Shown: in pieces, positions 33,507 through 52,751 of the stretch
How the letters are laid out: each line of letters begins with the position of its first letter
Numbering within the stretch: the stretch's first letter is position 1
DNA from: Myxococcota bacterium
GTDB lineage: Bacteria; Myxococcota_A; UBA9160; JAFDDA01
Reading direction: 5' to 3'
Assembly (NCBI GenBank): GCA_965228475.1
Contig: OZ245817.1
Span: 3,520,001 to 3,584,000, forward strand
Length of the DNA stretch: 64,000 nucleotides
The notes under the pieces: generated by a model
Databases searched by the model: none
Told to the model about the DNA's origin: nothing
Seen by the model: the letters and a program-made list of their open reading frames with translations, nothing else
Position numbers and translations under genes: made by a program

Positions 33507-33564
33507 GTGCCCCCCACTCGTTCGAGTCGCGGAACGTAGCAGCCCAAGCTACGGTTCGGCGGCC

Positions 33565-35760
33565 TTGAGCCAGCCCATCGAACGCGCGCTCGCTCGTTTC
33601 GCCGGCGCCGTCGTCGATGCGTCCCAGCGCCACGCGCGCGCCGTCGTCGTTGCGGGCCTGCTCCTCACCCTGGCCGCCGGGTTCGCCGCTTCGCACCTCG
33701 TCGCCGACAGCGACCCGGACCGCATGACCGCAGCGGACCTGCCGTTCCGCGTGACGAAACGACAAATCGAAACCGAATTTCCGATGCTTCGTGACAGTTT
33801 CGTCATCGTCGTCGAGGCGACGCGCGGCGAACACGCTCGGGAAGCGGCCGGCACACTCGCCCGGCGTCTGGCCGAGGATGGCGAGCGTTTCCGGGCCGTC
33901 GCCGCACCGACGTCGGACCCGTTCTTCGAACGAAACGCCTGGCTCTACCTGCCCGAAGCCGCCTTCGAGGCGGCGCTGCGCTCCCTCCGCGAAGGAGCCA
34001 GCCCCGAGCCACGCTCGCCGCCCGCCCGGCAGATCCTGCTCGCGCAACCCGCGCTCGACGAAGACGGCCTCGCACCGGCCCTCGATGCGATCGCGGCGGT
34101 CCGGACGGCCGCCGCGGCGCTCCCCGAACGCGACGGACTGCGCGTCCGGGTGACGGGCGACCTCGCCGTGCTGACGGAGGAGATGTCCGAGATCCGCGAT
34201 CAGGTGCTCGTCGCGTCCCTCGTCTCGGTGCTGCTCGTGACGGCAGTGCTGATCCTCACCCTGCGCTCGTTCCGGCTCTTCCTCGCCACGCTGCTGCTCC
34301 TCCTCGTCGGTCTCGTCTGGACCGCCGGCTTCGCCGCCCTGGCCGTAGGCCGGCTGAACGTGCTGACGACGGCCTTCGCGGTCCTCTACATCGGACTCGG
34401 CGTCGACTTCGGGATCCACTTCGCCCTGGGCTTTCGCGAGCGGCGAGAGCGAGGCGCGGCTCCGGACGTCGCGCTCCGCGAGGCCGGCCGTGACGTCGGG
34501 AGCTCCCTCGCCTTCTGCGCCCTCACGACGGCGACCGGTTTCTTCGCCTTCGTGCCGACGGACTACACCGCGGTCGCCGAGCTCGGCCTGATCTCGGGAA
34601 CGGGCATGTTCCTGAGCCTGCTCGCCACCTTGACCTGGTACCCGGCGACGCTCGCCCTCGGCCTCGGCCGCTCGACCCGGCTCGACCCGCGCACGGGGGC
34701 CCGGCGCGAGATCACGCTTCCGAGCTTTCCGCTGCGGCATCCCGGTGCCGTGATCGCGGCGGCCGTGCTCCTGTGCGGGGTCGGCGCGGGCTTCGCGCGC
34801 GACGTCCGGTTCGACGACAACCCGTTGAACGTGCGGGACCCTCGCGTCGAGTCCGTGGCGGCGCTCGAAGAGCTGCTGGCGGACCCCGCACTCTCTCCGT
34901 GGACGGCCGAGGCTCTCGCAAGCGGTCCGCGCGCCGCGCGTGAGCTCGCGCAGGCGCTCGAGGCACTCCCCGAGGTCGCGCACGCGCACACGGTGCACGA
35001 CCTCCTTCCGCCCGATCAGGAGCGCCGGCTCGCCCGGATCGCCTCGCTCCCCGAGGCCGTTCGCCAACAGCTCGCGCCGGGCCTTCCCAAAACTGCGCTC
35101 GCCTTCGAAGACCTGCCGGAGTCCCTGCGGAGCCGATATCTCTCCCGAAGTGGCATCGCCCGGGTCGAGATCTTCCCGAGCGAGGACCTGACCGCGCCGG
35201 GCGCCCTCGCCCGCTTCGCCGACGCCGTGCGCCGCGTCGCCCCCGACGCCTCGGGCGCCGCCGTCGGCACCGTCGAGTTCGCGCGCGCGATCACGCGCGC
35301 GCTGAAGCAGGCCCTCGCCACCGCTGTCGCGGTGATCCTCGTGCTGCTGCTCCTGCTCTGGCGAAGCCCGCGCGACGCCATGATCACCCTCGCCCCCCTG
35401 GCCTTCGGCACGCTCACGATCGTCGCCTTCGCCGGCGCGCTCGGCCTCCCCTTCAACTTCGCAAACGTGATCGTGTTGCCGTTGCTGCTCGGCATCGGCG
35501 TCGACAGCGGGATCCACCTCGTGCACCGCCACCGGCTCGCGCTCGGCGCCGACGCGAACCTGCTCGAGACGAGCACCGCACGCGCCGTGCTCTTCAGCGC
35601 GCTCACGACGGGCCTGTCCTTCGCCACGATCTGCTTCGCTTCGCACGGGGGAATCGCTTCGCTCGCGCTGCTGCTGACGGTCGGGATCGGGGTCATGCTC
35701 GCCGCGAACCTGCTGCTCCTGCCCGCGCTGGTGGCCCGCTTCGGAAAGCGGGAGCGCTAG
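33565..35760 (+). CDS. MMPL/RND-family transporter, HpnN-like (shortened)
   Basis: IGLGVDFGIH, FVPTDYTAVAELG, NPLNVRDP..ESV, FNFANVIVLPLLLGIGVDSGIH. Confidence 0.88.
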   Translation: MSQPIERALARFAGAVVDASQRHARAVVVAGLLLTLAAGFAASHLVADSDPDRMTAADLPFRVTKRQIETEFPMLRDSFVIVVEATRGEHAREAAGTLARRLAEDGERFRAVAAPTSDPFFERNAWLYLPEAAFEAALRSLREGASPEPRSPPARQILLAQPALDEDGLAPALDAIAAVRTAAAALPERDGLRVRVTGDLAVLTEEMSEIRDQVLVASLVSVLLVTAVLILTLRSFRLFLATLLLLLVGLVWTAGFAALAVGRLNVLTTAFAVLYIGLGVDFGIHFALGFRERRERGAAPDVALREAGRDVGSSLAFCALTTATGFFAFVPTDYTAVAELGLISGTGMFLSLLATLTWYPATLALGLGRSTRLDPRTGARREITLPSFPLRHPGAVIAAAVLLCGVGAGFARDVRFDDNPLNVRDPRVESVAALEELLADPALSPWTAEALASGPRAARELAQALEALPEVAHAHTVHDLLPPDQERRLARIASLPEAVRQQLAPGLPKTALAFEDLPESLRSRYLSRSGIARVEIFPSEDLTAPGALARFADAVRRVAPDASGAAVGTVEFARAITRALKQALATAVAVILVLLLLLWRSPRDAMITLAPLAFGTLTIVAFAGALGLPFNFANVIVLPLLLGIGVDSGIHLVHRHRLALGADANLLETSTARAVLFSALTTGLSFATICFASHGGIASLALLLTVGIGVMLAANLLLLPALVARFGKRER

Positions 35761-36655: not shown

Positions 36656-37396
36656 TCATCGCGTCGGCTGCGCGTCGCTGGAAGGCTCCGAGCCGGGCCG
36701 CTCGGCCTCGTAGAGGCTCACGAGCCGGGCGACCAGAACCGCGACGTAGAGGACGCCGACCACGGATTCGAGAATCTCGAGGGAGCGTGCAGGGCCGCTC
36801 TCCGGTGTGACGTCGCCGTACCCGAGCGTCGTCAGGGTCACGAAGCTCGCGTAGAGCAGGTCGGCCCAGGGCGGCGTCTTGCCCTGCCCCTCCGGGATCG
36901 CGAAAGAACCGGGCGAGACGGTCTCGAGCCAGGCGAAGCAGGCCGCAAAGGCCATGCCGAGCAGCAAGTAGACGCAGGCGGCGCCCGCCAGCGTATCGAC
37001 CCCGACGCGCCTGGCACCGAAGACCTCTCGGAAGACGAGGGCCGTGATCCACAGATGGAACGCGGCCTCGAACGCGAGGGACGCTGCCTCGAGGTTCCGC
37101 GAGGCCCGCACGACGTTCGCCGCGTCGGTTCCGGCCGCCGCGATGGCAAGCGCGCAGGCCAGACCGAAGGCGGCGCCGTTCGCGCCCGCCGCCAGAACGC
37201 CAGCGACCAGGACGAGAGCCGAGATGCCATGGAGGAGGACCGCGTCGGCGAGGTCGTGGCTGGCGTACGGATAGGCCAGCAGCAACCCGACCAGGCTCGC
37301 GAGCAGCAGGCGGAAGCGCCACCCCTCGGACGGGCTCGGGAGGGGCCCCGAGGCCGGGCGCACCCTTGCCCGGGTCGGCGGTTGGACGGCATGCAT
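36656..37396 (-). CDS. Potassium channel family protein
   Basis: Selectivity filter TLTTLGYGD, multiple TM segments, AGGAGG RBS. Confidence 0.9.
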   Translation of the reverse strand: MHAVQPPTRARVRPASGPLPSPSEGWRFRLLLASLVGLLLAYPYASHDLADAVLLHGISALVLVAGVLAAGANGAAFGLACALAIAAAGTDAANVVRASRNLEAASLAFEAAFHLWITALVFREVFGARRVGVDTLAGAACVYLLLGMAFAACFAWLETVSPGSFAIPEGQGKTPPWADLLYASFVTLTTLGYGDVTPESGPARSLEILESVVGVLYVAVLVARLVSLYEAERPGSEPSSDAQPTR

Positions 37397-37418
37397 CGGC
37401 GTCTCCTCCTCTCCCAGG

Positions 37419-37448
37419 AAACGCCCCTTTCGGCCCGAAACCCCGCAA
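37419..37448 (-). promoter_or_regulatory. Putative ECF promoter TTGCGGG-N17-GCGTTT (K+ channel gene)
   Basis: Minus strand TTGCGGG GTTTCGGGCCGAAAGGG GCGTTT, 22 nt before ATG; one of four copies with identical spacing. Confidence 0.8.
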
Positions 37449-37512
37449 CGTTCTCGGAGTTCCGCGGGTTTCGCGTGCTCGGCTGGAGGGAACGCGGGCC
37501 CCCCCTGGTTTT

Positions 37513-37542
37513 TTGCGGGTTTTCGAAGCTCCCGCTGCGTTT
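37513..37542 (+). promoter_or_regulatory. Putative ECF promoter TTGCGGG-N17-GCGTTT (pqiA-pqiA-MCE operon)
   Basis: TTGCGGG TTTTCGAAGCTCCCGCT GCGTTT, 17 nt before ATG, followed by AGGAGG. Confidence 0.8.
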
Positions 37543-37559
37543 ATTCCCAGGAGGCCCCC

Positions 37560-38192
37560 ATGGTCCCTGGCCGAGACCCGAAATCCCTGGCTCGCGGAGC
37601 CGTCGCCTGCCACGCATGCGACTGGCTCCAGGAGCGAGTCGAGCTCTCCTCCGGCGAGCGGGCGCGCTGCGCCCGATGTGGGACCGAACTCTTCCGAAGC
37701 CACCGGGAAGGCTTCGACCGGCCGATCGCGCTGACCGTGGCGGCGGCCGTCTGCTTCGGTCTCGCCAACACCTTTCCACTCCTCGCCCTTTCCCTCGAGG
37801 GCCGCGTGCAGCACAGCACCATCCTCGACGGCGTGCTCGACCTCGCGGCGGACGGGCTCTGGATCGTCGCCGGCTTCGTCTTCCTGGTGACGATGGCGGT
37901 GCCGTTCCTGCAGATCGCCGGTCGATTCTACCTGCTCCTCCCCCTGTCGCGCGGCAGGCGAGCCCCTGGATTCCACCGAAGCCTGCGAAGCCTCTCGTGG
38001 CTCGGGCCGTGGGGGATGCTCGAGGTCTACCTGCTCGGCGTGATCGTGGCGATCGTCAAGCTCTCGGATCTGGCTCAGGTCGAGATCGGCGTCGCTTTCT
38101 ACGCCTTCCTGGCCCTGATCGTGCTCGAGATCGCCGCCGCCGCGAGCCTCGACCCTCATGCGATCTTCGAAGCCGCGGAGACCGCGCAATGA
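37560..38192 (+). CDS. pqiA: PqiA/LetA-family membrane protein, N-terminal half
   Basis: ACHACD..CARCG zinc ribbon; PWGMLEVYLLG..VAIVKL. Confidence 0.92.
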   Translation: MVPGRDPKSLARGAVACHACDWLQERVELSSGERARCARCGTELFRSHREGFDRPIALTVAAAVCFGLANTFPLLALSLEGRVQHSTILDGVLDLAADGLWIVAGFVFLVTMAVPFLQIAGRFYLLLPLSRGRRAPGFHRSLRSLSWLGPWGMLEVYLLGVIVAIVKLSDLAQVEIGVAFYAFLALIVLEIAAAASLDPHAIFEAAETAQ

Positions 38193-38803
38193 CGGGCACG
38201 ACGGCCAGGACGGCAGGCTTGCGCGCCTGCCTGAACTGCGAGGCGCTCTGGCCTCTCGCGGGCCCTTCGACGTGTGCGCGCTGCGGCGCCGATGTCCCGC
38301 TGCGCCTGCCCGAGAGCCTCTCGCGAACCCTCGCCCTGCTCCTCGCTGCCGCCGCACTGTATGTCCCTGCGAACTGGTTCCCGATCATGACCGTCCGCCG
38401 CCTCGGCCAGGGTGAGCCGGCCACCATCCTCGGCGGCTGTCAGCATCTGTTCGAGTCCGGCATGTACGGGCTCGCGGCCCTCATCTTCTTCGCGAGCGTG
38501 CTCGTGCCGGGCCTCAAGCTCGTGGGCCTCGCCTATCTGGTGGCGATGACCCATCGGCGCTCTCGCAAGCGGCTGCTCGAACGCACGCGTCTCTACCACG
38601 TGATCGAGATTTTCGGCCGCTGGTCGATGATCGACGTGTTCGTCATCGCGATTCTCGTGGCGCTCGTCCAGCTCGGCGCCCTCGCACGGATCGAGCCTGG
38701 GCTCGGCGCCACCTTCTTCTGTCTCGTCGTCGTCATCACCATGTTCGCCTCGGCGAGCTTCGACCCCCGAATGATGTGGGATGTCCTGGAGGATCCATCA
38801 TGA
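38189..38803 (+). CDS. pqiA: PqiA/LetA-family membrane protein, C-terminal half
   Basis: CLNC..CARCG; YVPAN.FPIM; GRWSMIDVFV; FDPR..WD; ATGA overlap with the upstream gene. Confidence 0.92.
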   Translation: MTGTTARTAGLRACLNCEALWPLAGPSTCARCGADVPLRLPESLSRTLALLLAAAALYVPANWFPIMTVRRLGQGEPATILGGCQHLFESGMYGLAALIFFASVLVPGLKLVGLAYLVAMTHRRSRKRLLERTRLYHVIEIFGRWSMIDVFVIAILVALVQLGALARIEPGLGATFFCLVVVITMFASASFDPRMMWDVLEDPS

Positions 38804-40596
38804 GCGATCGAACCGACCCGCAGCACGCAGCGCAGGGCCTGCCCCGCACGCGCGTGGACCGCCGCCGGAGCATTCCCCTCGTCTGGTGGATCCCCATCGT
38901 GGCCCTGCTCGTCGGCGCTGGTGTGATCTACGACAGCTACGCGAGCCGCGGACCGACGGTGACGCTCCGCTTCAGCGACGGACAGGGCCTCGAGGCGGGC
39001 AAGACCCGCATCAAGTACAAGTCCGTCGAGATCGGCCTCCTGACCTCGATCCGTCTGAGCGACGATTTGAGCGGCGTCGTGGCCGAAGCGGAGATGGATC
39101 CCGGCACGGAAGGCCATCTCACCGACGCCACGGCCTTCTGGCGGGTGACACCCCAGGTCGGGTTCTCGGGCGTGACCGGTCTCGACACCCTCGTGTCGGG
39201 AGCCTACGTCGCGGTGTACCCCGCGGCCGGGACGCCACAACGCGAGTTCGAGGTGGCCGATCACGCACCGATCGATCTGGGTCATCGTGACGCTCTGCAC
39301 CTCCGCCTGCGATCCGCGCGCGGCGCGGTCCCGATCGGTGCTCCCGTCACCTGGCGGGGCATGATCGCCGGAGAGGTCACGCGCACGACGGTGGCCGATG
39401 ACGGGGAAGGGTTCGTGATCCACGCCCTGGTGGACCGCCCCTTCGCCGACGGGGTGCGGGCGGGCACGCGGTTCTGGCGCGAGAGCGGCATCGACGTTTC
39501 GCTCGGAGCCGCGGGGCTCGAAGTCCATGCTGGCTCCGTGCGCTCCATCGTGACGGGCGGCATCGCCTTCGACGGGCCCGAGGAAGCCGAAGGCCCGGCG
39601 CTCGAGCCCGGCGCCGAGCTTCCGCTCTTCGCCAACGAGAAGGCCGCCAAGGACGCGGACGTCCGCGCGGCCGGCCTGATCGTCCGGGTGGAGGCCCGCG
39701 ACGCCACGGCCCTTTCCGACGGCGCCCCGGTGCTCTACCGCAAGTCGCGTATCGGCCGCGTGCTCGGCCACGCCCTTTCGCCCGACGCCCGCACCATCCA
39801 AGCGGAGGTGCTGATCGAGGCCCGCTTCGCGCCGCTCGTCCGGGCGAACACGCGGTTCTGGAACGCCAGCGGCGTGCGCGTCGAGATGGGCCCGACCGGG
39901 CTCGCCGTCGAGACGGGACCCCTCGCCCAGGTGGTCGGCGGAGGACTCTCCCTCGCGACGCCCGACCGGCCGGGAGCGCCCGCGGAACCGGGCCGACTGT
40001 TCGCGCTGGCCGAGGAACCGTCCGAGCGATGGCTCGCCTGGGCCCCGGAGATCTGGCTGGCCGGCGAGGACCCGAGCAAGGCCGTCGCCCACGCCCTGCC
40101 CCGGACGGCGCGGCCCGCCGGGCTCGCGATCGAACTGGTCTCGGACGAGGCCGGCTCGGTCTCGCCGGGCGCGGGCGTGTACTTCAGGCGCCTCCGTGTG
40201 GGGGAAATCGTTTCGCGCGAGCTCGCCGGCGACGCGCGAACCGTGCGCATCCACGCTCGCATCGAGCGTCGCTACGCGCACCTCGTCCGCCAGAACTCGC
40301 GATTCTGGAACGCCAGCGGAATCGGAGTCGACATGGGCCTCGGCGGACTTCGCGTCCAGACCGAATCGATGGAAGCGCTGCTCGCAGGCGGCGTGGCCTT
40401 CGCGACCCCCGACCCGGCCGGCGCCCCGGCGAAACGAGGCAGCTCGTTCGCGCTGCACGGGAAGGGTCGAGACGAATGGCGCGACTGGGCGCCGGCGCTC
40501 GGCGTCGGCGGGTCCGCTCCGGCCGCGGTCACGGCGGCCGGCACGGCCGGCACCGCCAGGGCCGGGGGCTTCTGGGGGCGGCTGCTGGGACGCTGA
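38800..40596 (+). CDS. Multi-MCE-domain transport protein (PqiB/LetB family, four MCE domains)
   Basis: VWWIPIVALL TM; GLEAGKT.IKYK, GLDTLVSGAY; three further MCE units ending TRFW/SRFW. Confidence 0.9.
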   Translation: MSDRTDPQHAAQGLPRTRVDRRRSIPLVWWIPIVALLVGAGVIYDSYASRGPTVTLRFSDGQGLEAGKTRIKYKSVEIGLLTSIRLSDDLSGVVAEAEMDPGTEGHLTDATAFWRVTPQVGFSGVTGLDTLVSGAYVAVYPAAGTPQREFEVADHAPIDLGHRDALHLRLRSARGAVPIGAPVTWRGMIAGEVTRTTVADDGEGFVIHALVDRPFADGVRAGTRFWRESGIDVSLGAAGLEVHAGSVRSIVTGGIAFDGPEEAEGPALEPGAELPLFANEKAAKDADVRAAGLIVRVEARDATALSDGAPVLYRKSRIGRVLGHALSPDARTIQAEVLIEARFAPLVRANTRFWNASGVRVEMGPTGLAVETGPLAQVVGGGLSLATPDRPGAPAEPGRLFALAEEPSERWLAWAPEIWLAGEDPSKAVAHALPRTARPAGLAIELVSDEAGSVSPGAGVYFRRLRVGEIVSRELAGDARTVRIHARIERRYAHLVRQNSRFWNASGIGVDMGLGGLRVQTESMEALLAGGVAFATPDPAGAPAKRGSSFALHGKGRDEWRDWAPALGVGGSAPAAVTAAGTAGTARAGGFWGRLLGR

Positions 40597-40648
40597 GCGC
40601 AGGCGCGGCTCGGGCTGGCGCCGGTCTCGAGGACCGTGAAGCGGGGCT

Positions 40649-41236
40649 CTAGCCTTCGAAGCTCGGCCCGAGCTCGCGTCGTAGCCAGGCCCGGGCGAAG
40701 GTCCAGTCGCCCTCTACCGTTCGCGCCGAGACGCCGAGAGCCGCGGCCGCCTCCGGGGTCGTCATCCCGGCGAAGTAGCGGAGTTCGACGACACGTGCCT
40801 GGCGCTCCGAGAGCGCTTCGAGCCGCTTGAGCGCTTCGTCCAGCGCGAGCAGACCCTCGAGATCCACGCCGACCTCGGGGGACGACGGCCCCTGGGTCAG
40901 CGTCACCCGGCTCCAATCCCCGCCACGCTTCTGGCGCTTCCGCGCGACGGCGTGGTTGACGAGCAGACGTCGCATGGCCTGGGCACCGATTGCCAGGAAG
41001 TGCGTCCGCCCTTGCCATTCCACGCGCCTCTGATCGACGAGCTTCTCGTACGCTTCATGGACGAGCCCCGTCGCATCCAGGGTGTGCCCCGGTCGCTCCC
41101 GATTGAGGTAGCCGCTCGCGATCCGACGCATCTCGTCGTAGACCATCGGTAGGAGTTCTTCCGCCGCGCGACGAGCCCGCTCGGGGTCGCCCTCGATCCG
41201 CGTCAGCTGCTGGGTGACGAGCGCCCGGAGATCCAT
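40649..41236 (-). CDS. ECF sigma factor, TIGR02999/ECF43-like
   Basis: VYDEMRRIA, HTLDATGLVHEAY, HFLAIGAQAMRRLLVNHA..KRGG, VVELRYFAG, TVEGDW.FARAWL. Confidence 0.93.
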   Translation of the reverse strand: MDLRALVTQQLTRIEGDPERARRAAEELLPMVYDEMRRIASGYLNRERPGHTLDATGLVHEAYEKLVDQRRVEWQGRTHFLAIGAQAMRRLLVNHAVARKRQKRGGDWSRVTLTQGPSSPEVGVDLEGLLALDEALKRLEALSERQARVVELRYFAGMTTPEAAAALGVSARTVEGDWTFARAWLRRELGPSFEG

Positions 41237-41279
41237 GGGGAGAAAGGTAGCCGGGTTTTCGCCGGGCCTCCGAGACCCT

Positions 41280-44200
41280 TCACGGCGAGCGCTCGAGGAG
41301 CGCTCGGGCGACGCGGCCGTCGAGGGGGTCGGGTTCTTCCGGCCAGCCGTCGAGCGACCGTTCGATGAGCCGGCGGGCTTCGGCCGGGCGGCCCGCATCG
41401 ACGTGCCAGCGGGCGAGATCGATCGCGGCCCGGAGACCGAAGGCGCGCGCACCGCGTGCTTCGGCCAGGGCAAGCGCCCGTTCGAGCGCCTCGACCCCAG
41501 CCGCGTCTCCCGCGTCGAGCCGGAGCCGCGCCGCACCCTGGAGTCGCAGCAGTTCGGGCTCCCCGAGACGGCTGAGGGTACCGGAGGTGATCTCCAGCCC
41601 GGCGTCGACGGATTGCAGGGCCTCCTCGACCCGGCCGGCCTGGAGCTGGCTCTCGGCGAGGTGGCTCAACAGGAGATCCACGTAGAGGACGGCGCCCGCG
41701 GCTCGGGCCTCGGCGACGGTCCGCGCTGCCCGGTCCAGGGCCGCCGGCTGCCTCGAAAAGGCGTCCGCACAGGCGCCCTGCGCAGAAGCCACCTTCTCGA
41801 GGAACAGGATTCCATGATCGCGGCTCGAAGCTTCGGTCGGACGGGCGAGAGCCAACGCATCCTCCCTCGATCGGCGCAGAAGGTGAAGCGCAGCGATGAA
41901 GGTGCCAGCCAGGGCGCGGTTGAGCGCCTCGCTCGAACGCTCGGCCGTCGCGAGGGCGCACCTGGCGTGTCGATCCGCTTCCGCCCTTCGCCCGCTCAGC
42001 CACTCGACGAGCGCCAGGTACTCGTGCGCCACCACCTCGAGGTCTTCCGGGTAGACCTCGAGGGGCTTCACGCCGTGGGTTCGCCAGTCTTCGAGGACTC
42101 CCTCGAGGAGCGGGCGGCAGCGATCCAACTCGCCCTTCCAAAGGGCGATCTCTCCCTGCCCGGCCCGCGCGTAGAGGGCGACGCGACGGTCGCCGGCTCG
42201 CTCCGCGGCCTCGAGCAGGGCATCGGCGCGGGTCTCCGCATCGAGGGCGCCCGCCGTCCGATAGGATCCGAGCAACGCGACCAGGGTGGAGAGTCGGCTT
42301 GGCGTCTTCGGGTCCAGGCTCAGACACGCTTCGTGGGCTCGATGGAAGACCCCCCGGGCCGCCTCCGAACCCCAGCCGAGCGTCGCGGACAGCGCGTAGC
42401 CGAGCCCGGAAAGAATGATCACTTCGCGCTCGCGATCGACGACGCCCGGCGGCAGGCCGTCCACCGCCGCGAGGGCCCGCTCGAAGTGATGTCGCGCCTC
42501 GCGATACGCACAGACCTGCTGGGCCGCGGCCCCGGCCTCGACCCAGGCCTCGAGTGCCTCTTCCAGACGCCCCGCCCGCTCGGCATGATGGGCGAGCCAT
42601 TCCGGGTGCTCCGACAGCTCCGGGGCGAACCGCTCGCGCAGCAAGGCGCACACCTGCCCGTGCAGGGACCGTCGCTCCGGAGCGGGAATCGATTCGTAGG
42701 CGGCTTCCTCGATCAGCGCGTGGCGAAAGGCGTAGGCCGTACCGCCGTGCGCGTCCGCTCGACGGGTCAGAATCTCGGCTTCGACCAGGCCGGCGAGGTG
42801 GTGGTCCACCGCCGCAGGATCTCCATCCGCGAGCGCTCGCAACTGGGGCGTCGAGAAGTCGCGACCCAGGACGGAGGCGAGTTGAGCGAGCACCTTGCCC
42901 CGGCCGAGGCCGTCGAGACGCGCCATCAGGAGGTCCTGCAGGCTCGCCGGAATGCTCTCGCCCGAAGCACCCTCGAGCGATTCGAAACAGCGGATCAACT
43001 CGCCGACGAACAAGGGGTTGCCATCGGCTCTGGTGAAGACACGATCGACCGCCTCGGCCCGGACGTCGCTTCCGAGTCGCCCTTCCATCATCCGGCGCAC
43101 CTCACTCTTCCGCATGCGCCGAAGTGCGACGGGCGTGACGTGTTCGCGTCCCAACCAATCCAGCTGCATCCCGGGGCGGGCCGAGAGCACCAGCAGCAAC
43201 CGACTGGTCGGGATCTCCTGCACGAGCCCCTCGACCACTTCGAGCGAGCTCGGGTCCGCGAAATGCAGATCTTCGACGACGAGGACCGCCGGGCCCGGCG
43301 CTCCGAGCGCCAGGGCCCACCGCACCAGCAGATCCTTGGTTCGACGGCTCACCTGCTCGGGGGCGAGCGTCTCGGACGGTTCGCCACCGGGCAACGGGAT
43401 GCGGAGCAGCTGCGCGACCAGCGGAAGGGCATCCTCCGCATCGGCCAGGCCCGAGCGCGAAACCCCCGCGCGCAGGATCTCGTAGGCGTGTTTCGGGTCT
43501 CGCGCCTCCCGCAGCGAGAGCTGTTCCCGAACGAGCTCGACCAGGGAGTGCAAGGGGCTCTGCTGCGAGAAGGATCGATTGCGGCACTCCGCCACGAAGC
43601 GTGGAGCCGTGCCGAGGCGAGCGCGAAGCTCTGCGACGAGTCGGGACTTCCCCACTCCGGCCTCGCCCGTCACGAGGACGACCTGCCCGACTCCCTCGAG
43701 CACCTGCTCGAAGCGATCCTCCAGCAGGGCCAGTTCCTGGGTTCGACCGACGAGGGCGTGGCGGTGGGCGGGGGTGCCTTCGCGCGGAGAGAGAACCTCG
43801 AAGGTCGACACCTGGGCGCTGTCGGGTCGTGGGCGAACTTCGAAACCGTCGCCACACGTCGCCAGGACCGCCTCCGTGGCGACGACGCTCCCGGCCGGGG
43901 CGCTCTGAAGGAGCCGTCGCGCGATCGTGAGCGTCGGCCCGAAGGTTCGGGGGCGCCCTGGCCCCTCTTCGATCAACGCGGGTCCCGTGTGGACGGCCAC
44001 CGCGACGGCCATCGGGGCCTGCGCGTCGAAATCCTGCCCAAAGGCCTCGCGCACTTCACACGCGGCACGCAGGGCGCGCTCGGGAGCATCTTCGAGCGCG
44101 GCCGGATGGCCGAAGTAGGCGATGAAGCCCTCGGCCTGAGGCTCGGCCACGGAGCCTCCGTAGCGAGCGACGACGGCCTCGCAGCGGGCGAGGGCCCCGC

Positions 44201-45350
44201 GCACGCGCTCGTCGAGCGCCTCGAGTTCGAGGTCCGACGCCAGCGCATCGCTGTTGCGCAGCTCGACGCACCAGACGGTGAGCGGCCGTCGCGCCCGCCG
44301 ACCGAGATGCTCGCTGGTGGACGTGAGCGAACCGGGCCGCGTCTCCGTGGCCGCGTCCGCGTTTCCCTCAAGCAGCTCGGCCAGCGCGGCGGCACTCGCC
44401 GGCCGCGCCGCGGGATCCTTCGCGAGGGCCTGGAGGATCGCCGCCTCGAGGTCCCGCGGCACGCCCGGCGCGCGCCGGGAAGGCTTTTCCGGGTCGGCGA
44501 AACGCTGCAGCTCGGACAGCGCTGCGGCCGTCTGGGCACGGAACGTCGCCTCTCCGGTCAGGAGCTCATGGAGAACGAGACCCAGCGCGTAGAGGTCCGT
44601 GCGCTCGCTCACCTCCGCGTCGAAGACGAGCTGCTCGGGGGCCATGTAGGCCGGCGTGCCGACCAGCGCTCCCGACCCGCCGTGCTCACGGGTCGTCGCA
44701 ATTCCGAAATCGACGATTCGCGGCTCTCCTTCGGCGTCGAGCAGGATGTTCGCGGGCTTGAGGTCGCGGTGAAGGACCCCCCGGTCGTGGGCCGCCTGGA
44801 GGCCGGCGCACAGGCGCGCGCCGATCCGGCGAACCCGCTCGGGAGACAGCGGGCCGACCCGCTTCAGCAGATCCGAGAGATCGCCGCCGTCCACGTACTC
44901 CATGGTCAAGAACAGTTCGTCGCCGACCTGGCCGACGTCGTACACGCGGCCCACCGCCGGGTGGGTCACTTCGCGTGCGAGGCGCACCTCCTCGAGCAGC
45001 CGGTCGCGATGCTCGGGACCCGGGTCACGAACCCGCTTCAGGGCGACGGTGACGCCGAGCGCCGTGTCCTCCACGCGGAAGACCTCGCCCATGCCGCCGT
45101 GCCCGATGCGTTCGAGCACACGGTAGCGGTCGGCAAGGAGGGTCCCGGTCCCGAGAACGGCCGAGCTGGCGGCTTCGCGCAGGGGAACGTGATGGCGGAG
45201 CAACGACTCGACCTCCTCTCGGAGGGAATCGTCCCCGGGGCATTCTCGTTCGAGGAAGCCGGCGCGCGCCTCGCCCTCGAGCTTCACCGCCTCGAGGAAC
45301 AGCTCCCGGACCCGTTCGAAGCGGCTCTTTCCCGAACCCGTGTTCTCCAG
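41280..45350 (-). CDS. Soluble Ser/Thr kinase + degenerate class III cyclase-like domain + AAA/STAND ATPase + TPR
   Basis: Kinase GHGGMGEV, VALK, HRDLKPAN, DFG, GTPAYMAPE; cyclase-like FIAYFG..EDAPERA; Walker A GEAGVGKS; Walker B VVEDLH; GNPLF; helical C-terminus. Start set at CTG 45350 behind AGGAGG (ORF track gives GTG 45287). Confidence 0.92.
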   Translation of the reverse strand: MENTGSGKSRFERVRELFLEAVKLEGEARAGFLERECPGDDSLREEVESLLRHHVPLREAASSAVLGTGTLLADRYRVLERIGHGGMGEVFRVEDTALGVTVALKRVRDPGPEHRDRLLEEVRLAREVTHPAVGRVYDVGQVGDELFLTMEYVDGGDLSDLLKRVGPLSPERVRRIGARLCAGLQAAHDRGVLHRDLKPANILLDAEGEPRIVDFGIATTREHGGSGALVGTPAYMAPEQLVFDAEVSERTDLYALGLVLHELLTGEATFRAQTAAALSELQRFADPEKPSRRAPGVPRDLEAAILQALAKDPAARPASAAALAELLEGNADAATETRPGSLTSTSEHLGRRARRPLTVWCVELRNSDALASDLELEALDERVRGALARCEAVVARYGGSVAEPQAEGFIAYFGHPAALEDAPERALRAACEVREAFGQDFDAQAPMAVAVAVHTGPALIEEGPGRPRTFGPTLTIARRLLQSAPAGSVVATEAVLATCGDGFEVRPRPDSAQVSTFEVLSPREGTPAHRHALVGRTQELALLEDRFEQVLEGVGQVVLVTGEAGVGKSRLVAELRARLGTAPRFVAECRNRSFSQQSPLHSLVELVREQLSLREARDPKHAYEILRAGVSRSGLADAEDALPLVAQLLRIPLPGGEPSETLAPEQVSRRTKDLLVRWALALGAPGPAVLVVEDLHFADPSSLEVVEGLVQEIPTSRLLLVLSARPGMQLDWLGREHVTPVALRRMRKSEVRRMMEGRLGSDVRAEAVDRVFTRADGNPLFVGELIRCFESLEGASGESIPASLQDLLMARLDGLGRGKVLAQLASVLGRDFSTPQLRALADGDPAAVDHHLAGLVEAEILTRRADAHGGTAYAFRHALIEEAAYESIPAPERRSLHGQVCALLRERFAPELSEHPEWLAHHAERAGRLEEALEAWVEAGAAAQQVCAYREARHHFERALAAVDGLPPGVVDREREVIILSGLGYALSATLGWGSEAARGVFHRAHEACLSLDPKTPSRLSTLVALLGSYRTAGALDAETRADALLEAAERAGDRRVALYARAGQGEIALWKGELDRCRPLLEGVLEDWRTHGVKPLEVYPEDLEVVAHEYLALVEWLSGRRAEADRHARCALATAERSSEALNRALAGTFIAALHLLRRSREDALALARPTEASSRDHGILFLEKVASAQGACADAFSRQPAALDRAARTVAEARAAGAVLYVDLLLSHLAESQLQAGRVEEALQSVDAGLEITSGTLSRLGEPELLRLQGAARLRLDAGDAAGVEALERALALAEARGARAFGLRAAIDLARWHVDAGRPAEARRLIERSLDGWPEEPDPLDGRVARALLERSP

Positions 45351-45437
45351 GGGACCTCCTCGGTTTCCCCGCTTCAGTCTATCCGATCCCCGCGTGACGC
45401 GGACCGCATGCCGTTCGAACGGCGCTTCGAGCGAGGC

Positions 45438-48400
45438 TCAAACCCGCGCCCGTGCGGGGAACTCGACGCGGAAGAACAGGGCGTAGAGGGCGGGGACGGC
45501 GAGGAGGGTGAGCAGCGTTCCGAAGCCGATCCCGAAACTGATCACCACAGCCATCGCCGAGAAGAGCGGGTCTGCCGGAACCATGAGCGGGATCAGCCCG
45601 AGCACGGTCGTGAGCGTCGTCATCATGACCGGCTGGAAGCGGGAGACCGACGCAAAGACCACCGCATCGTATGGCGTCTCGCCCGAATCGATCTCGCTCT
45701 GGATCGTTTCCAACAGGACGATCGCATTGTTGATGATGATGCCCGCGAGGGAAAGAAAACCGAGCGTCGCCATGAAACCCAGGTAGGAGTCCGTGAGCCA
45801 GAGGCCCGCGATGGCCCCGATGAAGGTGATCGGGATCGTGATGAAGACGATCGCCGGCTTCAGGAAGGAATTGAACTGCCACACCAGGATGACGACCATG
45901 GCTGCCAGGGCGTGTGGCACGAACGCCGCGAGCGCCTGGTTCGCATCGTTCGCATCCTTGGTCTCGCCGTCCAACTGGAGTGAGTAGCCGAGCGGGAGTT
46001 CCGAGGAGAGTCGTTCCAGAGCGGGTGCAAGTTCCTCTTCGAGCTGCGCCGCCTGGAGCCAGGCGTGTTTGGCGCTGATCGTGATCGTCCGGGCGAGGTC
46101 ACGGCGTTCGATTCGCGAGAGCTGCGTGCGCGCTTCGAAATCCGCGACCTGCAGGAGCCCCACGTCCGCCCCACGTCCCTCGGAGTAGATGTTCAGACTT
46201 CGGACGCGGTCCAGGTTCCGGCGTTCGGAATCGATCGCCCGGAACACGACCGGGATGACGCGGTCCGCCTCGCGGTAGTCGGTCACGTACTCTCCGCTGA
46301 AGTAGCCGTTCAGACTCGTCGCGACCTCCCGGGAAGAGACGCCCGCACGTCGGGCCCGGGGTTGATCCACGCGGATGCGGACCTTGCTGACGCGATTCTC
46401 CCAGTCGCTGTGCACGTCGATCGTCCCGGGGATGGCACGCAGGGCCGACCGGACGTCTTCCCCGAGAGCCGCCAGGCGATCGCGGTGCTGGCCGGAGACG
46501 CGGATCTTCACGAGACCGGTCTCCGAGGTGCCGAGCCAGAACTTCTTGACGCGACTGAAGACGACCGGGTGGTGCTCGGTCATGCGACGCCGCGTGCGGT
46601 CGAGGAGCGCGTCCACGGCCTCGACCGACTTCGTGTTGACGAGCACGAAGGCGACGTTGGGAGCCGCGTCGCGCGGCGAGAGCGGCACGAAGAAACGCGG
46701 GCCCCCGTAGCCCACGTAGGCGACGTGGCTCGCGACCTCGGGGTTCGTCTCCTCGTCGCCCAGCCAGTCGAGGAGCCGACGGACCTCCGCATCCGTTGCA
46801 TGAAAGCCGTACCCGGCGGGCAGGTCCACGTAGATCATGAATTGGGATCGCGGCGAGTTCGGCATGAACTGCTGGGGCACTTCCTCGAGCAGCACGACGG
46901 AACTCGCCAGCGCAGCGCCGATGGCCGACACGAACGAGACGGGCCGCCGCAGGACTCTCTCGAGCAGCGCCCGGTAGATCTGGAACATGCGTCCCTCGTA
47001 GGCTCGAGCGATCTGCTCGGGCGTCAGGATCTCCGGCTGCATCCAGCGGACGCACAGGAGCGGGGTCACGCACACGGCCAGCAGCCAGGAACACAGCAAG
47101 GTGACGGCGATCACGATCGTCATGGAGCGCAGGTATTCGCCGGTGTCGTCCGGCGCGAGGGCGAGAGGCATGAACGCCAGGATGGTCGTGATCGACGAGG
47201 TGAGCAGGGGAATCGCGAGGCTCCGGCCCGCGGCAATCGCAGCGTCACGGCGGTCTTCGCCCTCCCGAAGCCGGCGCCCGATCTCCTCCGCCATGACGAT
47301 GCCATTGTCGACGAGCAGCCCGAGGGCGATGATGAGCGTCGCCAGGCTGACGCGCTGCAACTCGATTCCGAGCACTCGCATGATGACGATCGTGAGGAGC
47401 ATGGTCATCGGCACGACGGTCCCGACGATGAGACCCGTCCGGACGCCCAGGAACACCATCACGACGACCAACACGATGCCGAGCGTCTCGTAGACGTTCA
47501 GCGCGACGCCCTGAACGGACTCCGCGACGTAACGCGCCTGGTAGGTGGCGAACTCCATCTGGTAGCCGACCGGGAGGCCCGCTTCGATCCGTTTCACCCG
47601 CTCGCGCAGCCGCGGGCCGAATTCCAGCACGTTGCCGCCCTTCATCATGGAGACCGCCAGGACCACCGCTGGCCGTCCCCCGAAGTAGGCCTTCGTCTCG
47701 GGCGGATCCACATACGCGCGATTGACGCGAACGAGGTCTTTCAGGTAGGCGACGTCCCCCGTCGCGGGGATCCGGATCAACAGGTTCTCGATGTCCTCGA
47801 CCGTCTCGAAGCTTCCCGAGGGCTCGATTGCCACGCTCAGCAGGCCGGTGTCGACGCTCCCACCCGGAAGGATCACGTTCTGGTCCCGCAGCGTCCGCTC
47901 GAGCTCGATCGGTGAGATGCCGTAGCGAGCCAGACGGGCGTCGCTCGTTTCGAGGTAGACCTGCTCGCGTTGTGCGCCGTGGAGAACCACCTTCTTCACG
48001 CCGTCGAGCGAGTAGATCTCGTCGCGCGCGGCTCGGGCCACGTCGCGCAGCTCGTGCATCGAGAAGCCGGCGGCCGTGATGGCGACCGTGGCCACGTAGA
48101 CGTCTCCGAACTCGTCGTTCACGAAGGGGCCGGCCGTACCTTCCGGCAGATCCTCCCGGACGTCGTTCATCTTGTTGCGCAGGTCCTGCCAGATGCGGGC
48201 CATGTCGAAGAAGCGATCCGAAACGATCACGTGCACGATCGCCATGCCCGCCTTCGAGCTGGCCTGGATGTGCTCCACCTCGGGAATCAACCGGATCTTC
48301 TTCTCGAGCTTGCGGGTGATCAGGTCTTCCACCCGCTCGGGCGACATGCCGGGATAGAGCGCGGTCACCACCGCTTCCCTCACGGTGACCTCGGGATCCT

Positions 48401-48506
48401 CCTTGCTCGGAAAGTCCAGATAGAAGGCCACCCCTGCGGCCATCGACAGCGCCGTGAGCAGACCGACGAGCCGCTCGTTGTCGAGGGCGAAGCGAGTCAG
48501 ATTCAT
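45438..48506 (-). CDS. RND efflux transporter permease subunit
   Basis: 1022 aa; PG.SPERVE, VNDEFGD, LGLLVDNGIV, SRFQPVMMTT. Confidence 0.95.
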   Translation of the reverse strand: MNLTRFALDNERLVGLLTALSMAAGVAFYLDFPSKEDPEVTVREAVVTALYPGMSPERVEDLITRKLEKKIRLIPEVEHIQASSKAGMAIVHVIVSDRFFDMARIWQDLRNKMNDVREDLPEGTAGPFVNDEFGDVYVATVAITAAGFSMHELRDVARAARDEIYSLDGVKKVVLHGAQREQVYLETSDARLARYGISPIELERTLRDQNVILPGGSVDTGLLSVAIEPSGSFETVEDIENLLIRIPATGDVAYLKDLVRVNRAYVDPPETKAYFGGRPAVVLAVSMMKGGNVLEFGPRLRERVKRIEAGLPVGYQMEFATYQARYVAESVQGVALNVYETLGIVLVVVMVFLGVRTGLIVGTVVPMTMLLTIVIMRVLGIELQRVSLATLIIALGLLVDNGIVMAEEIGRRLREGEDRRDAAIAAGRSLAIPLLTSSITTILAFMPLALAPDDTGEYLRSMTIVIAVTLLCSWLLAVCVTPLLCVRWMQPEILTPEQIARAYEGRMFQIYRALLERVLRRPVSFVSAIGAALASSVVLLEEVPQQFMPNSPRSQFMIYVDLPAGYGFHATDAEVRRLLDWLGDEETNPEVASHVAYVGYGGPRFFVPLSPRDAAPNVAFVLVNTKSVEAVDALLDRTRRRMTEHHPVVFSRVKKFWLGTSETGLVKIRVSGQHRDRLAALGEDVRSALRAIPGTIDVHSDWENRVSKVRIRVDQPRARRAGVSSREVATSLNGYFSGEYVTDYREADRVIPVVFRAIDSERRNLDRVRSLNIYSEGRGADVGLLQVADFEARTQLSRIERRDLARTITISAKHAWLQAAQLEEELAPALERLSSELPLGYSLQLDGETKDANDANQALAAFVPHALAAMVVILVWQFNSFLKPAIVFITIPITFIGAIAGLWLTDSYLGFMATLGFLSLAGIIINNAIVLLETIQSEIDSGETPYDAVVFASVSRFQPVMMTTLTTVLGLIPLMVPADPLFSAMAVVISFGIGFGTLLTLLAVPALYALFFRVEFPARARV

Positions 48507-49609
48507 CGGAGCCGGCCTCCTGCCACCTGCTCCGGTTCGGCCCCGAACAGGGTGACGGGCTGATCGTCCGAGAGGAACTCGACGCCCGCGGCGGCCACGA
48601 TCATCCCCGCCTCGAGACCCTCGGAGACCTCGACCTGGTTGTTGCGCAGGCCGGATACCACGATCTCCGTCCGCTTCACCGTCCCCGTTGCCGCGTCGTA
48701 GACGAATACCGAGTAGGCGTCGTCCGCCTCTGCACGGAGCGCCGCCAGGGGTAGATGGACTCCCGACGAAGCGGCTCGCCGCCCCACGTAGACGAACTCG
48801 GCCTCTACGGTCATGCCCGGACGCATCTTCTCGGGGCGTTCGAGGAGTCGGATCTTCATCGGGAAGGCGTCGGCGATGCCAGCCCGGGAGCCGAGCTGGG
48901 AGATCCGGCCGGGGACCCGCTCTCCGGCGAGGGTGGGAAAGACGACCGTCACCGGGTCGCCCGCGGCGACGTAGAGGGCCACGGCCTCGGGAGCTGCGAG
49001 CGCCACTTCGTAGGAACGTTCGCTATCGAGCTCGAAGAGGGGCTCGCCCGCGGGGACTTCGACGAAGGCGTCCACCTTCTTCAGGGAGATGACGCCATCG
49101 AAAGGCGCGCGAAGGACCGCGTTGTTCAAGTCGCGCCGGGCGAGGCCCAGCTCGGCGCGAGCGGCCCGCGTGAGCCCCTCCGCATTCGCATGGGCCGCTC
49201 GCACGCGGTCGTAGGCGGACTGGCTGACGGCGCCGGCGTCCAACATCCGCTGGTATCGAGCGAACTCGGCCTGCTGGCGAATTCGCTCGGCCTCGGCCTG
49301 GCTCACGCGCGCCTGGGCCCGGTGCACGGCCAACTCGAACGGCTGCACGTCGAGTTCGGCGAGCACGTCGCCCTTCGAGACGCGGTCACCCAGGGAGGCC
49401 ACGACCCGCCGGACGCGGCCCGAGACTTCGAAGGAGAGCTGGCTCTCGACGGTGGGGCGCACCGTGCCGGAGATCCTGCGCTCCTCGGCGGCTCCTTCTT
49501 CCTGCACCCGCACCCACTTGATGGCCCGCAGGGGGATCTCGGGGGGCGGCGGTTCGGCGCCGCAGCCGACGACGGCCAACAGGCTGGCGAGAGCGATTCG
49601 TGACCTCAT
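48503..49609 (-). CDS. RND periplasmic adaptor (MFP) lipoprotein
   Basis: Lipobox VVGC; LSFEVSGRV, LRAPFDGVI, RPGMT; GGAGG RBS; ATGA overlap with the permease gene. Confidence 0.93.
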   Translation of the reverse strand: MRSRIALASLLAVVGCGAEPPPPEIPLRAIKWVRVQEEGAAEERRISGTVRPTVESQLSFEVSGRVRRVVASLGDRVSKGDVLAELDVQPFELAVHRAQARVSQAEAERIRQQAEFARYQRMLDAGAVSQSAYDRVRAAHANAEGLTRAARAELGLARRDLNNAVLRAPFDGVISLKKVDAFVEVPAGEPLFELDSERSYEVALAAPEAVALYVAAGDPVTVVFPTLAGERVPGRISQLGSRAGIADAFPMKIRLLERPEKMRPGMTVEAEFVYVGRRAASSGVHLPLAALRAEADDAYSVFVYDAATGTVKRTEIVVSGLRNNQVEVSEGLEAGMIVAAAGVEFLSDDQPVTLFGAEPEQVAGGRLR

Positions 49610-49629
49610 GAGAGCCTCCCTGTGGCTTG

Positions 49630-49659
49630 AAACGCCACATCGGGAGGGAAGTCCCGCAA
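49630..49659 (-). promoter_or_regulatory. Putative ECF promoter TTGCGGG-N17-GCGTTT (MFP-RND-kinase-ECF unit)
   Basis: Minus strand TTGCGGG ACTTCCCTCCCGATGTG GCGTTT, 20 nt before ATG. Confidence 0.8.
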
Positions 49660-49783
49660 CCCTGATCGGGGTCGCCCTCACGGAAGGCGCCCCCGGGGCG
49701 CGGCGGGGGCCCTGGGGGGCGCGGCAAGCTCGGGGACTCGCCTGCCAGGTGCGAGGGACGTCCGCCGGGAAGGCTCGACGCCG

Positions 49784-49813
49784 TTGCGGGGTTTTTCGCG
49801 AAAGGTGGCGTTT
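49784..49813 (+). promoter_or_regulatory. Putative ECF promoter TTGCGGG-N17-GCGTTT (secreted protein gene)
   Basis: TTGCGGG GTTTTTCGCGAAAGGTG GCGTTT, 28 nt before ATG. Confidence 0.8.
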
Positions 49814-49841
49814 CCCGGTGAGTGCCCATGAAGGAGACCCC

Positions 49842-50369
49842 ATGCGATCCCGAAGCCTCTTTGCCCTCGCCTCGCTCGGCACCCTCATCGCCGCAGGCCC
49901 CGCCGCGGCTGCCGGCTACGACCACGTCCTCTCCGTGGCCGCCGACCGCTCCCCGGTGACCCTCCGGGTCGGCCCCGGGGATACGATGACCTGGCTGAGC
50001 CTCCTCAAGCAGCCGGTCTGGGTGGAGCTGCGCCGCCAAGGTCGGCGAGATGCCTGCCCCGACGGTCGACGAGACGTCCGGATGCTCCTGCTTCCGGGTT
50101 CCTCGGTGAAGAGCTGCTGGCTGCACGAGGGCGTCTACGAGTACCGGGTGCTCGCTTCCGCCCCGAGGTCCGACGGTTGGGCGCGCACGAAAGCGATCGA
50201 ACTCCTGCTCGCCGACCACCCGCTGCGTCCCTTGGACGAGCAGGCCCGCGCAGAAGAACACGAGCGGGTCCGCGCGAGGCGCGAGGCGCGCGATCGTGCC
50301 GAGAGCCGGGACGCCGTGAGCTTCCGAAGAGCGGCGGTGGTCGGGACGTCGCTCCTCGGCACGCCCTAG
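49842..50369 (+). CDS. Secreted hypothetical protein (cupredoxin-like sequence pattern)
   Basis: AAGGAG RBS; signal peptide MRSRSLFALASLGTLIAAGPAAA; LRVGPGDTMTW..PG..GVYEYRV. Confidence 0.7.
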   Translation: MRSRSLFALASLGTLIAAGPAAAAGYDHVLSVAADRSPVTLRVGPGDTMTWLSLLKQPVWVELRRQGRRDACPDGRRDVRMLLLPGSSVKSCWLHEGVYEYRVLASAPRSDGWARTKAIELLLADHPLRPLDEQARAEEHERVRARREARDRAESRDAVSFRRAAVVGTSLLGTP

Positions 50370-52127: not shown

Positions 52128-52751
52128 CTAGTCCTCGCGGCGACGGCGTGCGGCGGCGCCCGCCACGAGGAGCGTGCCGACGCCGTAGGCGGCGAAGGAG
52201 CTCACCTCGGGGATCGCCGGGCCGCCGCTTCCCTCGAGGCCGCGGGCCTCGGCGTCCACGATCAACGCGGCGAAGTCGACGCGGAAGTCACCGCGCTGGG
52301 CGATGATCTCGTAATCGAGCTGGCCGGTGCCGTCGATCGTCGCGTAGAGCGTGGCCGAGACGTCGATGCTCTCGATGCCGAAGTCGACCTCGATCGGGCC
52401 GGCGGCGCTCACGTCGTCGAGCTGGACGAGCATGTACTCGCGGCGCCAATCGAAGTCGTCGCGCACGCCGAGCAGGACCGAAGCGCCCACGGTGCGATGC
52501 GTGCCGACCTCGAAGCCGCCCTCGTCTTCGAGCGTGGTCGGCAGGAAGTTCCCCGGGAGCCACAACAGGAAGGAGTCGTCCTCGATGCCGGCGGCGGTGA
52601 TGTCGAAGGTGCCGCTGATCGAGGAATCGCCGCGCGCGGAGAGCCGCTCGCCGCCGAGTGCGTCGATGTCGGTGAACGTCGCGGCTTGGGCGGGGCCGGC
52701 CAGGGCAACGGTCGCAACGAGAGCGAAGAGGGCAGCGAATCGCATCAGCAT
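52128..52751 (-). CDS. Secreted protein with variant PEP-CTERM-like tail
   Basis: Signal peptide ending AQA; C-terminal IPEV + hydrophobic helix + RRRR. Confidence 0.78.
   Translation of the reverse strand: MLMRFAALFALVATVALAGPAQAATFTDIDALGGERLSARGDSSISGTFDITAAGIEDDSFLLWLPGNFLPTTLEDEGGFEVGTHRTVGASVLLGVRDDFDWRREYMLVQLDDVSAAGPIEVDFGIESIDVSATLYATIDGTGQLDYEIIAQRGDFRVDFAALIVDAEARGLEGSGGPAIPEVSSFAAYGVGTLLVAGAAARRRRED

Follow-up and report, generated by a model that had tools for sequence, protein, structure and literature searches.

The DNA analysed here, referred to as the window, is a stretch of 64,000 nucleotides from a Myxococcota bacterium (assembly GCA_965228475.1, contig OZ245817.1, positions 3,520,001 to 3,584,000; C1:3520001-3584000 of genome G000 in our numbering). 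It contains a block of genes, mostly for envelope and transport functions, that also encodes a Ser/Thr kinase and a sigma factor of the extracytoplasmic function (ECF) type, related to the ECF43 group. Four copies of the sequence TTGCGGG-N17-GCGTTT precede genes of this block, and it is highly probable that they represent promoters recognized by the resident ECF43-like sigma, with TTGCGGG as the -35 and GCGTTT as the -10 box. We also consider probable the whole model, in which this sigma, switched by the kinase, would read the four sites and launch an envelope and transport response. The sites are the following:

37419..37448, minus strand: site A, TTGCGGG (-35), 17 nt, GCGTTT (-10), 22 nt 5′ of the K+ channel ATG
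37513..37542, plus strand: site B, 17 nt 5′ of the pqiA1 ATG
49630..49659, minus strand: site C, 20 nt 5′ of the membrane-fusion protein (MFP) ATG
49784..49813, plus strand: site D, 28 nt 5′ of the secreted-protein ATG

A preliminary description of this DNA had reported four motif copies 17-28 nt before start codons, with a ribosome-binding site (RBS) in between, and no further copy in the window. Our pattern search agrees with it on all these points, and an RBS of the GGAG or AGGAG type is present in every gap between site and ATG. The four exact matches in the 64,000-nt window compare with none in 100 dinucleotide shuffles, and the scan of the whole genome (5,006,157 bases in one contig, both strands) returned only the same four, all inside the block. 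Far from being frequent genome-wide, the motif thus occurs four times where 0.05 matches per genome would be expected by chance for the two halves at one fixed spacing (a figure obtained by pairing both halves). At other spacings the same halves were found zero times at 15, 16 and 19 nt and once at 18 nt. The spacers are identical in only 4-10 of 17 bases per pair of sites and, consequently, the four do not appear to derive from a recent duplication; TT is present at spacer positions 3-4 in all of them. With two boxes, a fixed spacing, CGT in the -10 box and an orientation towards nearby starts, TTGCGGG/GCGTTT has the features of an ECF target promoter.

When the genome was scored with a matrix from other genomes, the four sites ranked 1, 2, 3 and 6, a result that is partly circular, as the training sites had been picked by a window-derived pattern. 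A dispersed regulon was also considered and rejected: TGCGG-N19-CGTT has 86 matches in the genome, but spacings of 16 and 22 give similar numbers (79 and 67), which points to codon phase. Similarly, a relaxed pattern was not enriched in 61 genomes of the order (89 matches vs. about 109 in the summed reversed control), and twenty look-alike matches in relatives headed no common gene. The block had been called self-contained, which is largely accurate for this genome, where the strong sites are confined to it, but elsewhere the motif heads other genes, some of them distant from the sigma.

The sigma factor scores 195 bits with TIGR02999 (cut-off 126) and 181 bits with PF07638 and is the only strong TIGR02999/ECF43-like member in the genome; “ECF43-like” is used here as a label derived from these matches, not from ECF classification models. 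According to PMC13147305 and PMC8999054, ECF43 factors are activated by phosphorylation of a Thr in region 2.2. In the resident sigma, this region reads L53-DATG-L58, with Thr56 at the phospho-site column, which holds Thr or Ser in 156 of 157 homologues and shows T/S exchange among the closest ones. The motif DAT or DAS is found in 9 of 25 aligned close homologues, and the majority form, QPTA, in 75 of 157. A Hanks kinase gene is adjacent, ending 43 nt before the sigma gene, and a domain search found no anti-sigma domain among the proteins of the block.

Several observations connect the motif with this type of sigma. Among 25 sigma70-family matches checked in the genome, the resident sigma alone is accompanied, within 10 kb, by a site that exceeds 14 bits (it reaches 30.1 bits), as scored with a matrix trained on the sites of other genomes. 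For the comparison between genomes, ECF43-like loci were sampled from GTDB genomes (the best 80 of 364, 40 of 75 outside G000 and 7 of 9 outside G000; of these nine, G027, already in the sample, and G521, a duplicate of L011, were set aside). With a matrix built from the window only, 150 such loci gave 41 matches above 15 bits, compared with 25 in reversed DNA. At 20 bits or more, sites were found in 11 of the 150 loci, namely L011, from one other Myxococcota genome, nine loci from Vicinamibacterales/Acidobacteriota, and L069, whose single site is doubtful. In L011 and the nine Vicinamibacterales/Acidobacteriota loci, as in the window, the kinase gene comes before the sigma gene, and region 4.2 has the sequence RT[VI]E[GS]DW. 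Additionally, 157 loci were clustered at 70% identity into 114 clusters and a start-codon filter was applied to the sites: a site of at least 18 bits was present in 5 of the 11 clusters with RT[VIA]E[GS][DE]W in region 4.2, vs. 2 of the 103 others (Fisher p 6e-5), and in none of the 114 in the reversed-DNA control. Within the order, the loci L321 and L322 (RTVEGDW) carry sites and three with RTAER[DE]W do not. By contrast, pqiA loci without a resident-type sigma alongside (the second copy in G000 and those of G001, G002 and G006) have no site upstream; the motif thus travels with the sigma and not with the target genes. The earlier proposal of a two-part ECF promoter served by the resident sigma is therefore supported as the most likely assignment, given the co-location of the motif with this sigma type across phyla and its covariation with region 4.2. 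A motif-first scan of metagenomes also found an ECF43-like gene at 7 of 118 loci (for scale, there are 12 ECF43-like genes in 61 genomes of the order).

Other results weigh against this promoter assignment. For instance, 6 of the 11 clusters with the same helix lack a site of at least 18 bits within the DNA examined; the grouping by region 4.2 was drawn after a first look at the data, and related loci are not independent. The strong sites come from few lineages, specifically the window together with L011 (support 99), one Vicinamibacterales clade (support 100) and the single loci L321 and L322, and in a quick tree the first two clades did not come out as demonstrable sisters. The metagenome scan had no matched control, and at least three of its seven loci belong to the Vicinamibacterales clade. 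A de novo Gibbs search of 19 sigma-kinase gaps yielded no family-wide motif clearly above shuffles (15.9 vs. 14.1-14.4); word counts in 122 non-redundant loci likewise gave no family-wide spacing peak. Moreover, the promoter predicted for the ECF43 group in the PMC7826278 supplement, GTC (-35) and CAG (-10), differs from the motif of the window. Finally, region 2.2 of the resident sigma keeps Asp54 (DATG, compared with the QPTA majority) and, because of this, the sigma may be partly active without phosphorylation.

The genes of the block, whose identities as first assigned are backed by Pfam and NCBIfam, and two candidate promoter elements discussed below are the following:

36656..37396, minus strand: small K+ channel, 246 aa (PF07885, TTLGYG filter)
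37560..38192, plus strand: pqiA1, 210 aa (PF04403)
38189..38803, plus strand: pqiA2, 204 aa (PF04403)
38800..40596, plus strand: MCE protein, PqiB/LetB-like, 598 aa, with four MlaD stretches
40649..41236, minus strand: ECF43-like sigma factor, 195 aa (PF07638, 181 bits; TIGR02999, 195 bits)
41244..41249, minus strand: candidate housekeeping -10 TACCTT of the leaderless type, 7 nt before the sigma ATG
41280..45350, minus strand: soluble Ser/Thr kinase with cyclase-like, STAND and TPR domains, probable CTG start at 45350
45376..45381, minus strand: candidate housekeeping -10 TAGACT in the RND-kinase gap, without a matching -35
45438..48506, minus strand: RND permease, 1022 aa (PF00873)
48503..49609, minus strand: RND MFP, 368 aa (TIGR01730)
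49842..50369, plus strand: secreted protein, 175 aa, with an all-beta domain and two Cys, without a family

The kinase is not a membrane receptor but a soluble protein, composed of an ECF43-type N-terminal helical extension, a kinase domain with intact catalytic motifs, a class III cyclase-like domain that is degenerate, a STAND ATPase and TPRs; its orthologue in L011 has the same domain build. No membrane helix is present: hydropathy over 19 residues peaks at 1.77, at a position within the ATPase domain (the L011 orthologue peaks at 1.26, and three Vicinamibacterales kinases reach 2.45-2.46). The ATPase domain matches PF13191 with 76.5 bits and has a Walker A (GEAGVGKS) and a Walker B (LVVEDLH) followed by the TPRs, as expected of a STAND ATPase, all of which is kept in L011. 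The cyclase-like domain aligns to solved adenylate cyclases (E 1e-5), but SDLRGF and GDG read VELRNS and AEG, and both metal-binding Asp residues are replaced by Glu, so it does not qualify as an active class III cyclase. The protein probably starts at the CTG at 45348-45350 (minus strand), 5 nt after GAGGAGG, as the called GTG start at 45287 would truncate the N-terminal helix that is conserved in homologues. PknS has a similar N-terminal extension of unknown role (PMC13147305). A complex prediction for the sigma and kinase residues 1-325 scored 0.46, vs. 0.00 for the best control, with at least 33% of contacts shared between runs and a partner pLDDT of at least 75. Of the solved pairs, 116 of 157 reached the mark used, compared with 2 of 215 mismatched ones, but at 0.60 or below it was reached by only 18 of the 157 and by both mismatches; the modelled complex is thus weakly supported. 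A further DAS-type sigma (P0006) and a STAND kinase (P0132) come from contigs of identical length (485,340), which suggests a third pair of such build.

The sigma and kinase genes each seem to own a housekeeping-type promoter, as judged from their upstream sequences. This genome has a leaderless signature: TAnnnT is found 6, 7 and 8 nt before ATG in 108, 21 and 20 of 1869 crude starts, compared with 4, 5 and 2 for a control hexamer (the start filter inflates gaps in multiples of three, so that the figures at 7 and 8 nt are the clean ones). In front of the sigma gene, TACCTT lies 7 nt before the ATG without a Shine-Dalgarno sequence, and the identical hexamer is found at 6 nt in the L011 sigma gene. 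The kinase gene has TAGACT 25 nt before its probable CTG start. Among homologous genes, 17 of 116 carry such a leaderless element, vs. 3 for the control, and the four motif-headed genes have no TAnnnT within 60 nt. No sigma-70 consensus promoter passed a strict scan. Leaderless TAnnnT elements are also present before an LLM gene at 36635 and before the second pqiA copy. Consequently, the description of the block as four transcription units is not supported as it stands, as the kinase and sigma genes have candidate -10 elements of their own.

The assignment of the motif to the resident sigma has to be weighed against two other explanations. One is that another ECF sigma of the genome reads the motif and that the ECF43-like pair has other targets. 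The genome does have about 24 sigma70-family genes over the cut-off and there are weaker look-alikes outside the block. For instance, at C1:521562-521590 (plus strand), TTGCGGG-N17-ACGTTC is followed by AGGAGG and by an ATG at the distance seen at sites B and C, before a glyoxalase-family gene, which could be a weak fifth target; another lies at C1:965524, before a SIMPL gene. We nevertheless consider this explanation very unlikely, since none of the other sigmas checked is within 10 kb of a site scoring more than 14 bits, the order shows no enrichment of the relaxed pattern and the motif accompanies the ECF43-like sigma into another phylum. Additionally, the glyoxalase site was not seen in the two relatives examined, and the SIMPL site has the look of a housekeeping promoter, as it runs into TAnnnT and is kept in G001, a genome (89% complete) in which ECF43-like genes were sought and not found. 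The other explanation, in which the motif would serve as the operator of a DNA-binding transcription factor or be left over from the end repeats of a mobile cassette, is highly improbable. It would account for the arrangement of the four copies as inverted pairs, one towards each end of the block, and for the patchiness of the block in the order; in G001, for instance, the block was not seen beside either flanking gene. Against it, the motif is asymmetric, always points to a start codon 17-28 nt away and combines a fixed spacing with variable spacers; the domain search found no other DNA-binding regulator in the block, and elsewhere single copies precede unrelated genes.

A further model, that of the preliminary description, shares the promoter assignment but adds that MFP, RND, kinase and sigma genes form one transcript from site C, which would create a positive-feedback loop. 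In its favour, all four genes point the same way and are separated by -4, about 87 and 43 nt, a search of the RND-kinase and kinase-sigma gaps turned up no intrinsic terminator, and about 55% of predictable ECFs are autoregulated (PMC8103513). In L133 (L133:8001-8666), moreover, a site immediately precedes an ECF43-like gene that belongs to a different clade, an arrangement that could reflect autoregulation or a sigma cascade; over 80 loci, the motif is not enriched directly upstream of ECF43-like genes. In this genome there is no copy directly before the sigma gene, and read-through from site C to it would have to span MFP, RND and kinase, about 8.4 kb. In the related loci the arrangement differs: the kinase-sigma unit of L011 is separate from MFP-RND, and all strong sites there, like those of the Vicinamibacterales loci, are found on the other strand from the kinase and sigma genes. 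Moreover, TAnnnT elements are found at the sigma and kinase genes and not near the four targets, and downstream of the RND stop there are two hairpins, which do not exceed the level of shuffled sequence (z -1.0). With read-through needed, a -10 of the sigma’s own and related loci without a site on this strand, positive feedback is not supported as a design feature, and we regard the loop model as rather unlikely. In the preferred reading, transcription from site C that continues into the kinase and sigma genes may contribute some feedback here, without being a conserved part of the design.

Under this preferred reading, basal levels of the sigma and the kinase would be provided by their own housekeeping-type promoters. 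The soluble kinase would sense a cytoplasmic cue through its STAND-TPR part and phosphorylate Thr56 in region 2.2 of the sigma, and perhaps a linker Thr too. The phosphate would supply the negative charge for binding of the core RNA polymerase, and the resulting holoenzyme would fire two divergent promoter pairs. The products (PqiA/MCE lipid transport, the RND-MFP exporter, the K+ channel and the secreted beta-sandwich protein) would constitute an envelope and transport response. The block had been proposed to be an envelope-remodelling or defence module; the former is a fair reading of the targets, but nothing points to (phage) defence. For the secreted 175-aa protein, a fold search gave no match at E 0.001, and Atlas matches were all below 0.9; a cupredoxin-like fold is a weak lead. 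BLAST revealed no significant similarity between this protein and the secreted protein of L011.

A more specific and tentative reading, which we consider somewhat unlikely as a whole, is that the kinase is an NLR-like cytoplasmic receptor wired to the sigma and that the RTVEGDW helix determines the TTGCGGG -35 box. The TPR or pseudo-cyclase part would bind a ligand, which could be a metabolite, a lipid intermediate or an invader protein, the STAND ATPase would oligomerize, the kinase domains would activate each other and the sigma would be phosphorylated, switching on a horizontally moving module for lipid transport, efflux and K+.

The same gene classes recur in L011 in a reshuffled order: kinase, sigma, MCE, two pqiA, channel, RND and MFP, plus an outer-membrane factor. 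The RND protein of L011 is only 35% identical to that of the window. Sites are present in L011 before pqiA1 and before a divergent secreted gene (the contig stops before the start of the efflux string), and the pqiA1 site (L011:8628-8657, minus strand) is kept though it falls within the final codons of the K+ channel gene. The module is patchy in the order, as sigmas close to that of the window were found in only 10 of 193 genomes; in G001, the two flanking genes are on different contigs and neither was seen with the module at its side. The GC content of the block is unremarkable and a plasmid search returned generic pqiA matches only. In Vicinamibacterales (L025:3-4249, L026, L031, L051 and L055), two TLC nucleotide-translocase-like genes, each behind the motif, are divergent from a kinase-kinase-ECF43 unit. 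Further sites in Vicinamibacterales genomes precede genes for a cytochrome c and small proteins, and 2 of 4 and 3 of 5 sites lie away from the sigma; the reader of these distant sites is not fixed, because the genomes hold 4-10 paralogues. In other members of the order of G000, namely in L323 and L326, an ECF43-like sigma (RTAERDW/EREW helix) is paired with a long kinase like that of the window, and L325 lies beside RND-MFP genes; these loci, without a TTGCGGG site, probably represent a sister system with another promoter.

The switch proposed here resembles EcfK-PknS of Xanthomonas citri (PMC13147305) and EcfP-PknT of Vibrio parahaemolyticus (PMC8999054), which likewise combine a PF07638-type sigma, with Thr replacing the DAED acidic patch, and an adjacent kinase with an N-terminal helical extension, without an anti-sigma gene. 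EcfP controls an envelope-type response, polymyxin resistance (PMC8999054), and the targets of the block are likewise of the envelope type. There are also differences. The kinase gene of the window lies before the sigma, at position -1, compared with +1 in the ECF43 group (PMC7826278 supplement), and region 2.2 is DATG, with the first Asp kept; the targets are pqiA/MCE, RND and a K+ channel. Kinases of the PknS/PknT type have one membrane helix and periplasmic TPRs, and 87.8% of those of the ECF43 group have one membrane helix with extracytoplasmic TPRs, whereas that of the window, with its cyclase-like, STAND and TPR domains, does not belong to this type. It matches the TOMM kinase/cyclase fusion proteins (TIGR03903) full-length with the same order of kinase, cyclase-like, AAA_16 and TPR parts (470.5 bits), and is also comparable to AC-STAND-TPR signalling ATPases. 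Its TIGR03903 score is below the cut-off of 705.75, however, there is no TOMM cluster, both metal Asp residues are Glu and the N-terminal extension is that of ECF43 kinases. Regarding the promoter, the hallmark of autoregulated ECF promoters is AAC at -35 and CGT at -10 (e.g., TGTCACA/CGTC for ECF41 and TGTCGAT/CGTC for ECF42; PMC8103513, PMC7826278). The motif shares with these the two boxes, the fixed spacing, the CGT in the -10 and the small local target set, but its -35 is TTGCGGG and no copy directly precedes the sigma gene.

The PqiABC and LetAB lipid transporters of E. coli consist of PqiA-domain proteins followed by a multi-MCE protein. In the window, by contrast, pqiA is split in two genes, the MCE protein has four MCE stretches, no PqiC was found in the block and the promoter would be of the ECF43 type. 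A second pqiA-pqiA-MCE operon of the genome (G000 C1:553486-556489), whose MCE protein is 38% identical, lacks the motif and lies about 9 kb from another RND gene. Outside the block, the window also encodes a secreted protein with a PEP-CTERM-like tail (IPEV, membrane helix, RRRR) and no Pfam match (52128-52751, minus strand) and, to the left (32262-35760), a glycosyltransferase family 21 gene and, divergent from it, one for an MMPL/HpnN-like transporter.

No description of the motif or the gene set was met in our literature searches, which may have missed an ECF43 promoter published in the EcfP/EcfK papers or supplements; a text search for TGCG in part of the PMC7826278 supplement found nothing. 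The promoter sequence is, thus, apparently undescribed, in line with the preliminary description, but the switch itself is of the established ECF43 type. In fact, the logic in which a sigma reads local promoters and a kinase activates the sigma is a textbook arrangement, which limits the surprise. The interest lies elsewhere. TIGR02999/ECF43-like sigmas are abundant (of 8,000 candidates scored, 4,834 proteins reach E 1e-40 or better) and, as far as the literature consulted goes, the published promoter for the ECF43 group is so far a weak prediction. A promoter tied to a recognition helix would allow regulon prediction in uncultured Myxococcota and Acidobacteriota, and could serve as a simple reporter for sigma phosphorylation. 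Additionally, the soluble STAND-kinase partner points to a cytoplasmic, rather than periplasmic, input. If the NLR-like reading were true, it would supply a promoter code for TIGR02999 sigmas with one of its entries and would add sensing inside the cell to a sigma-phosphorylation pathway that has so far been fed from membrane receptors.

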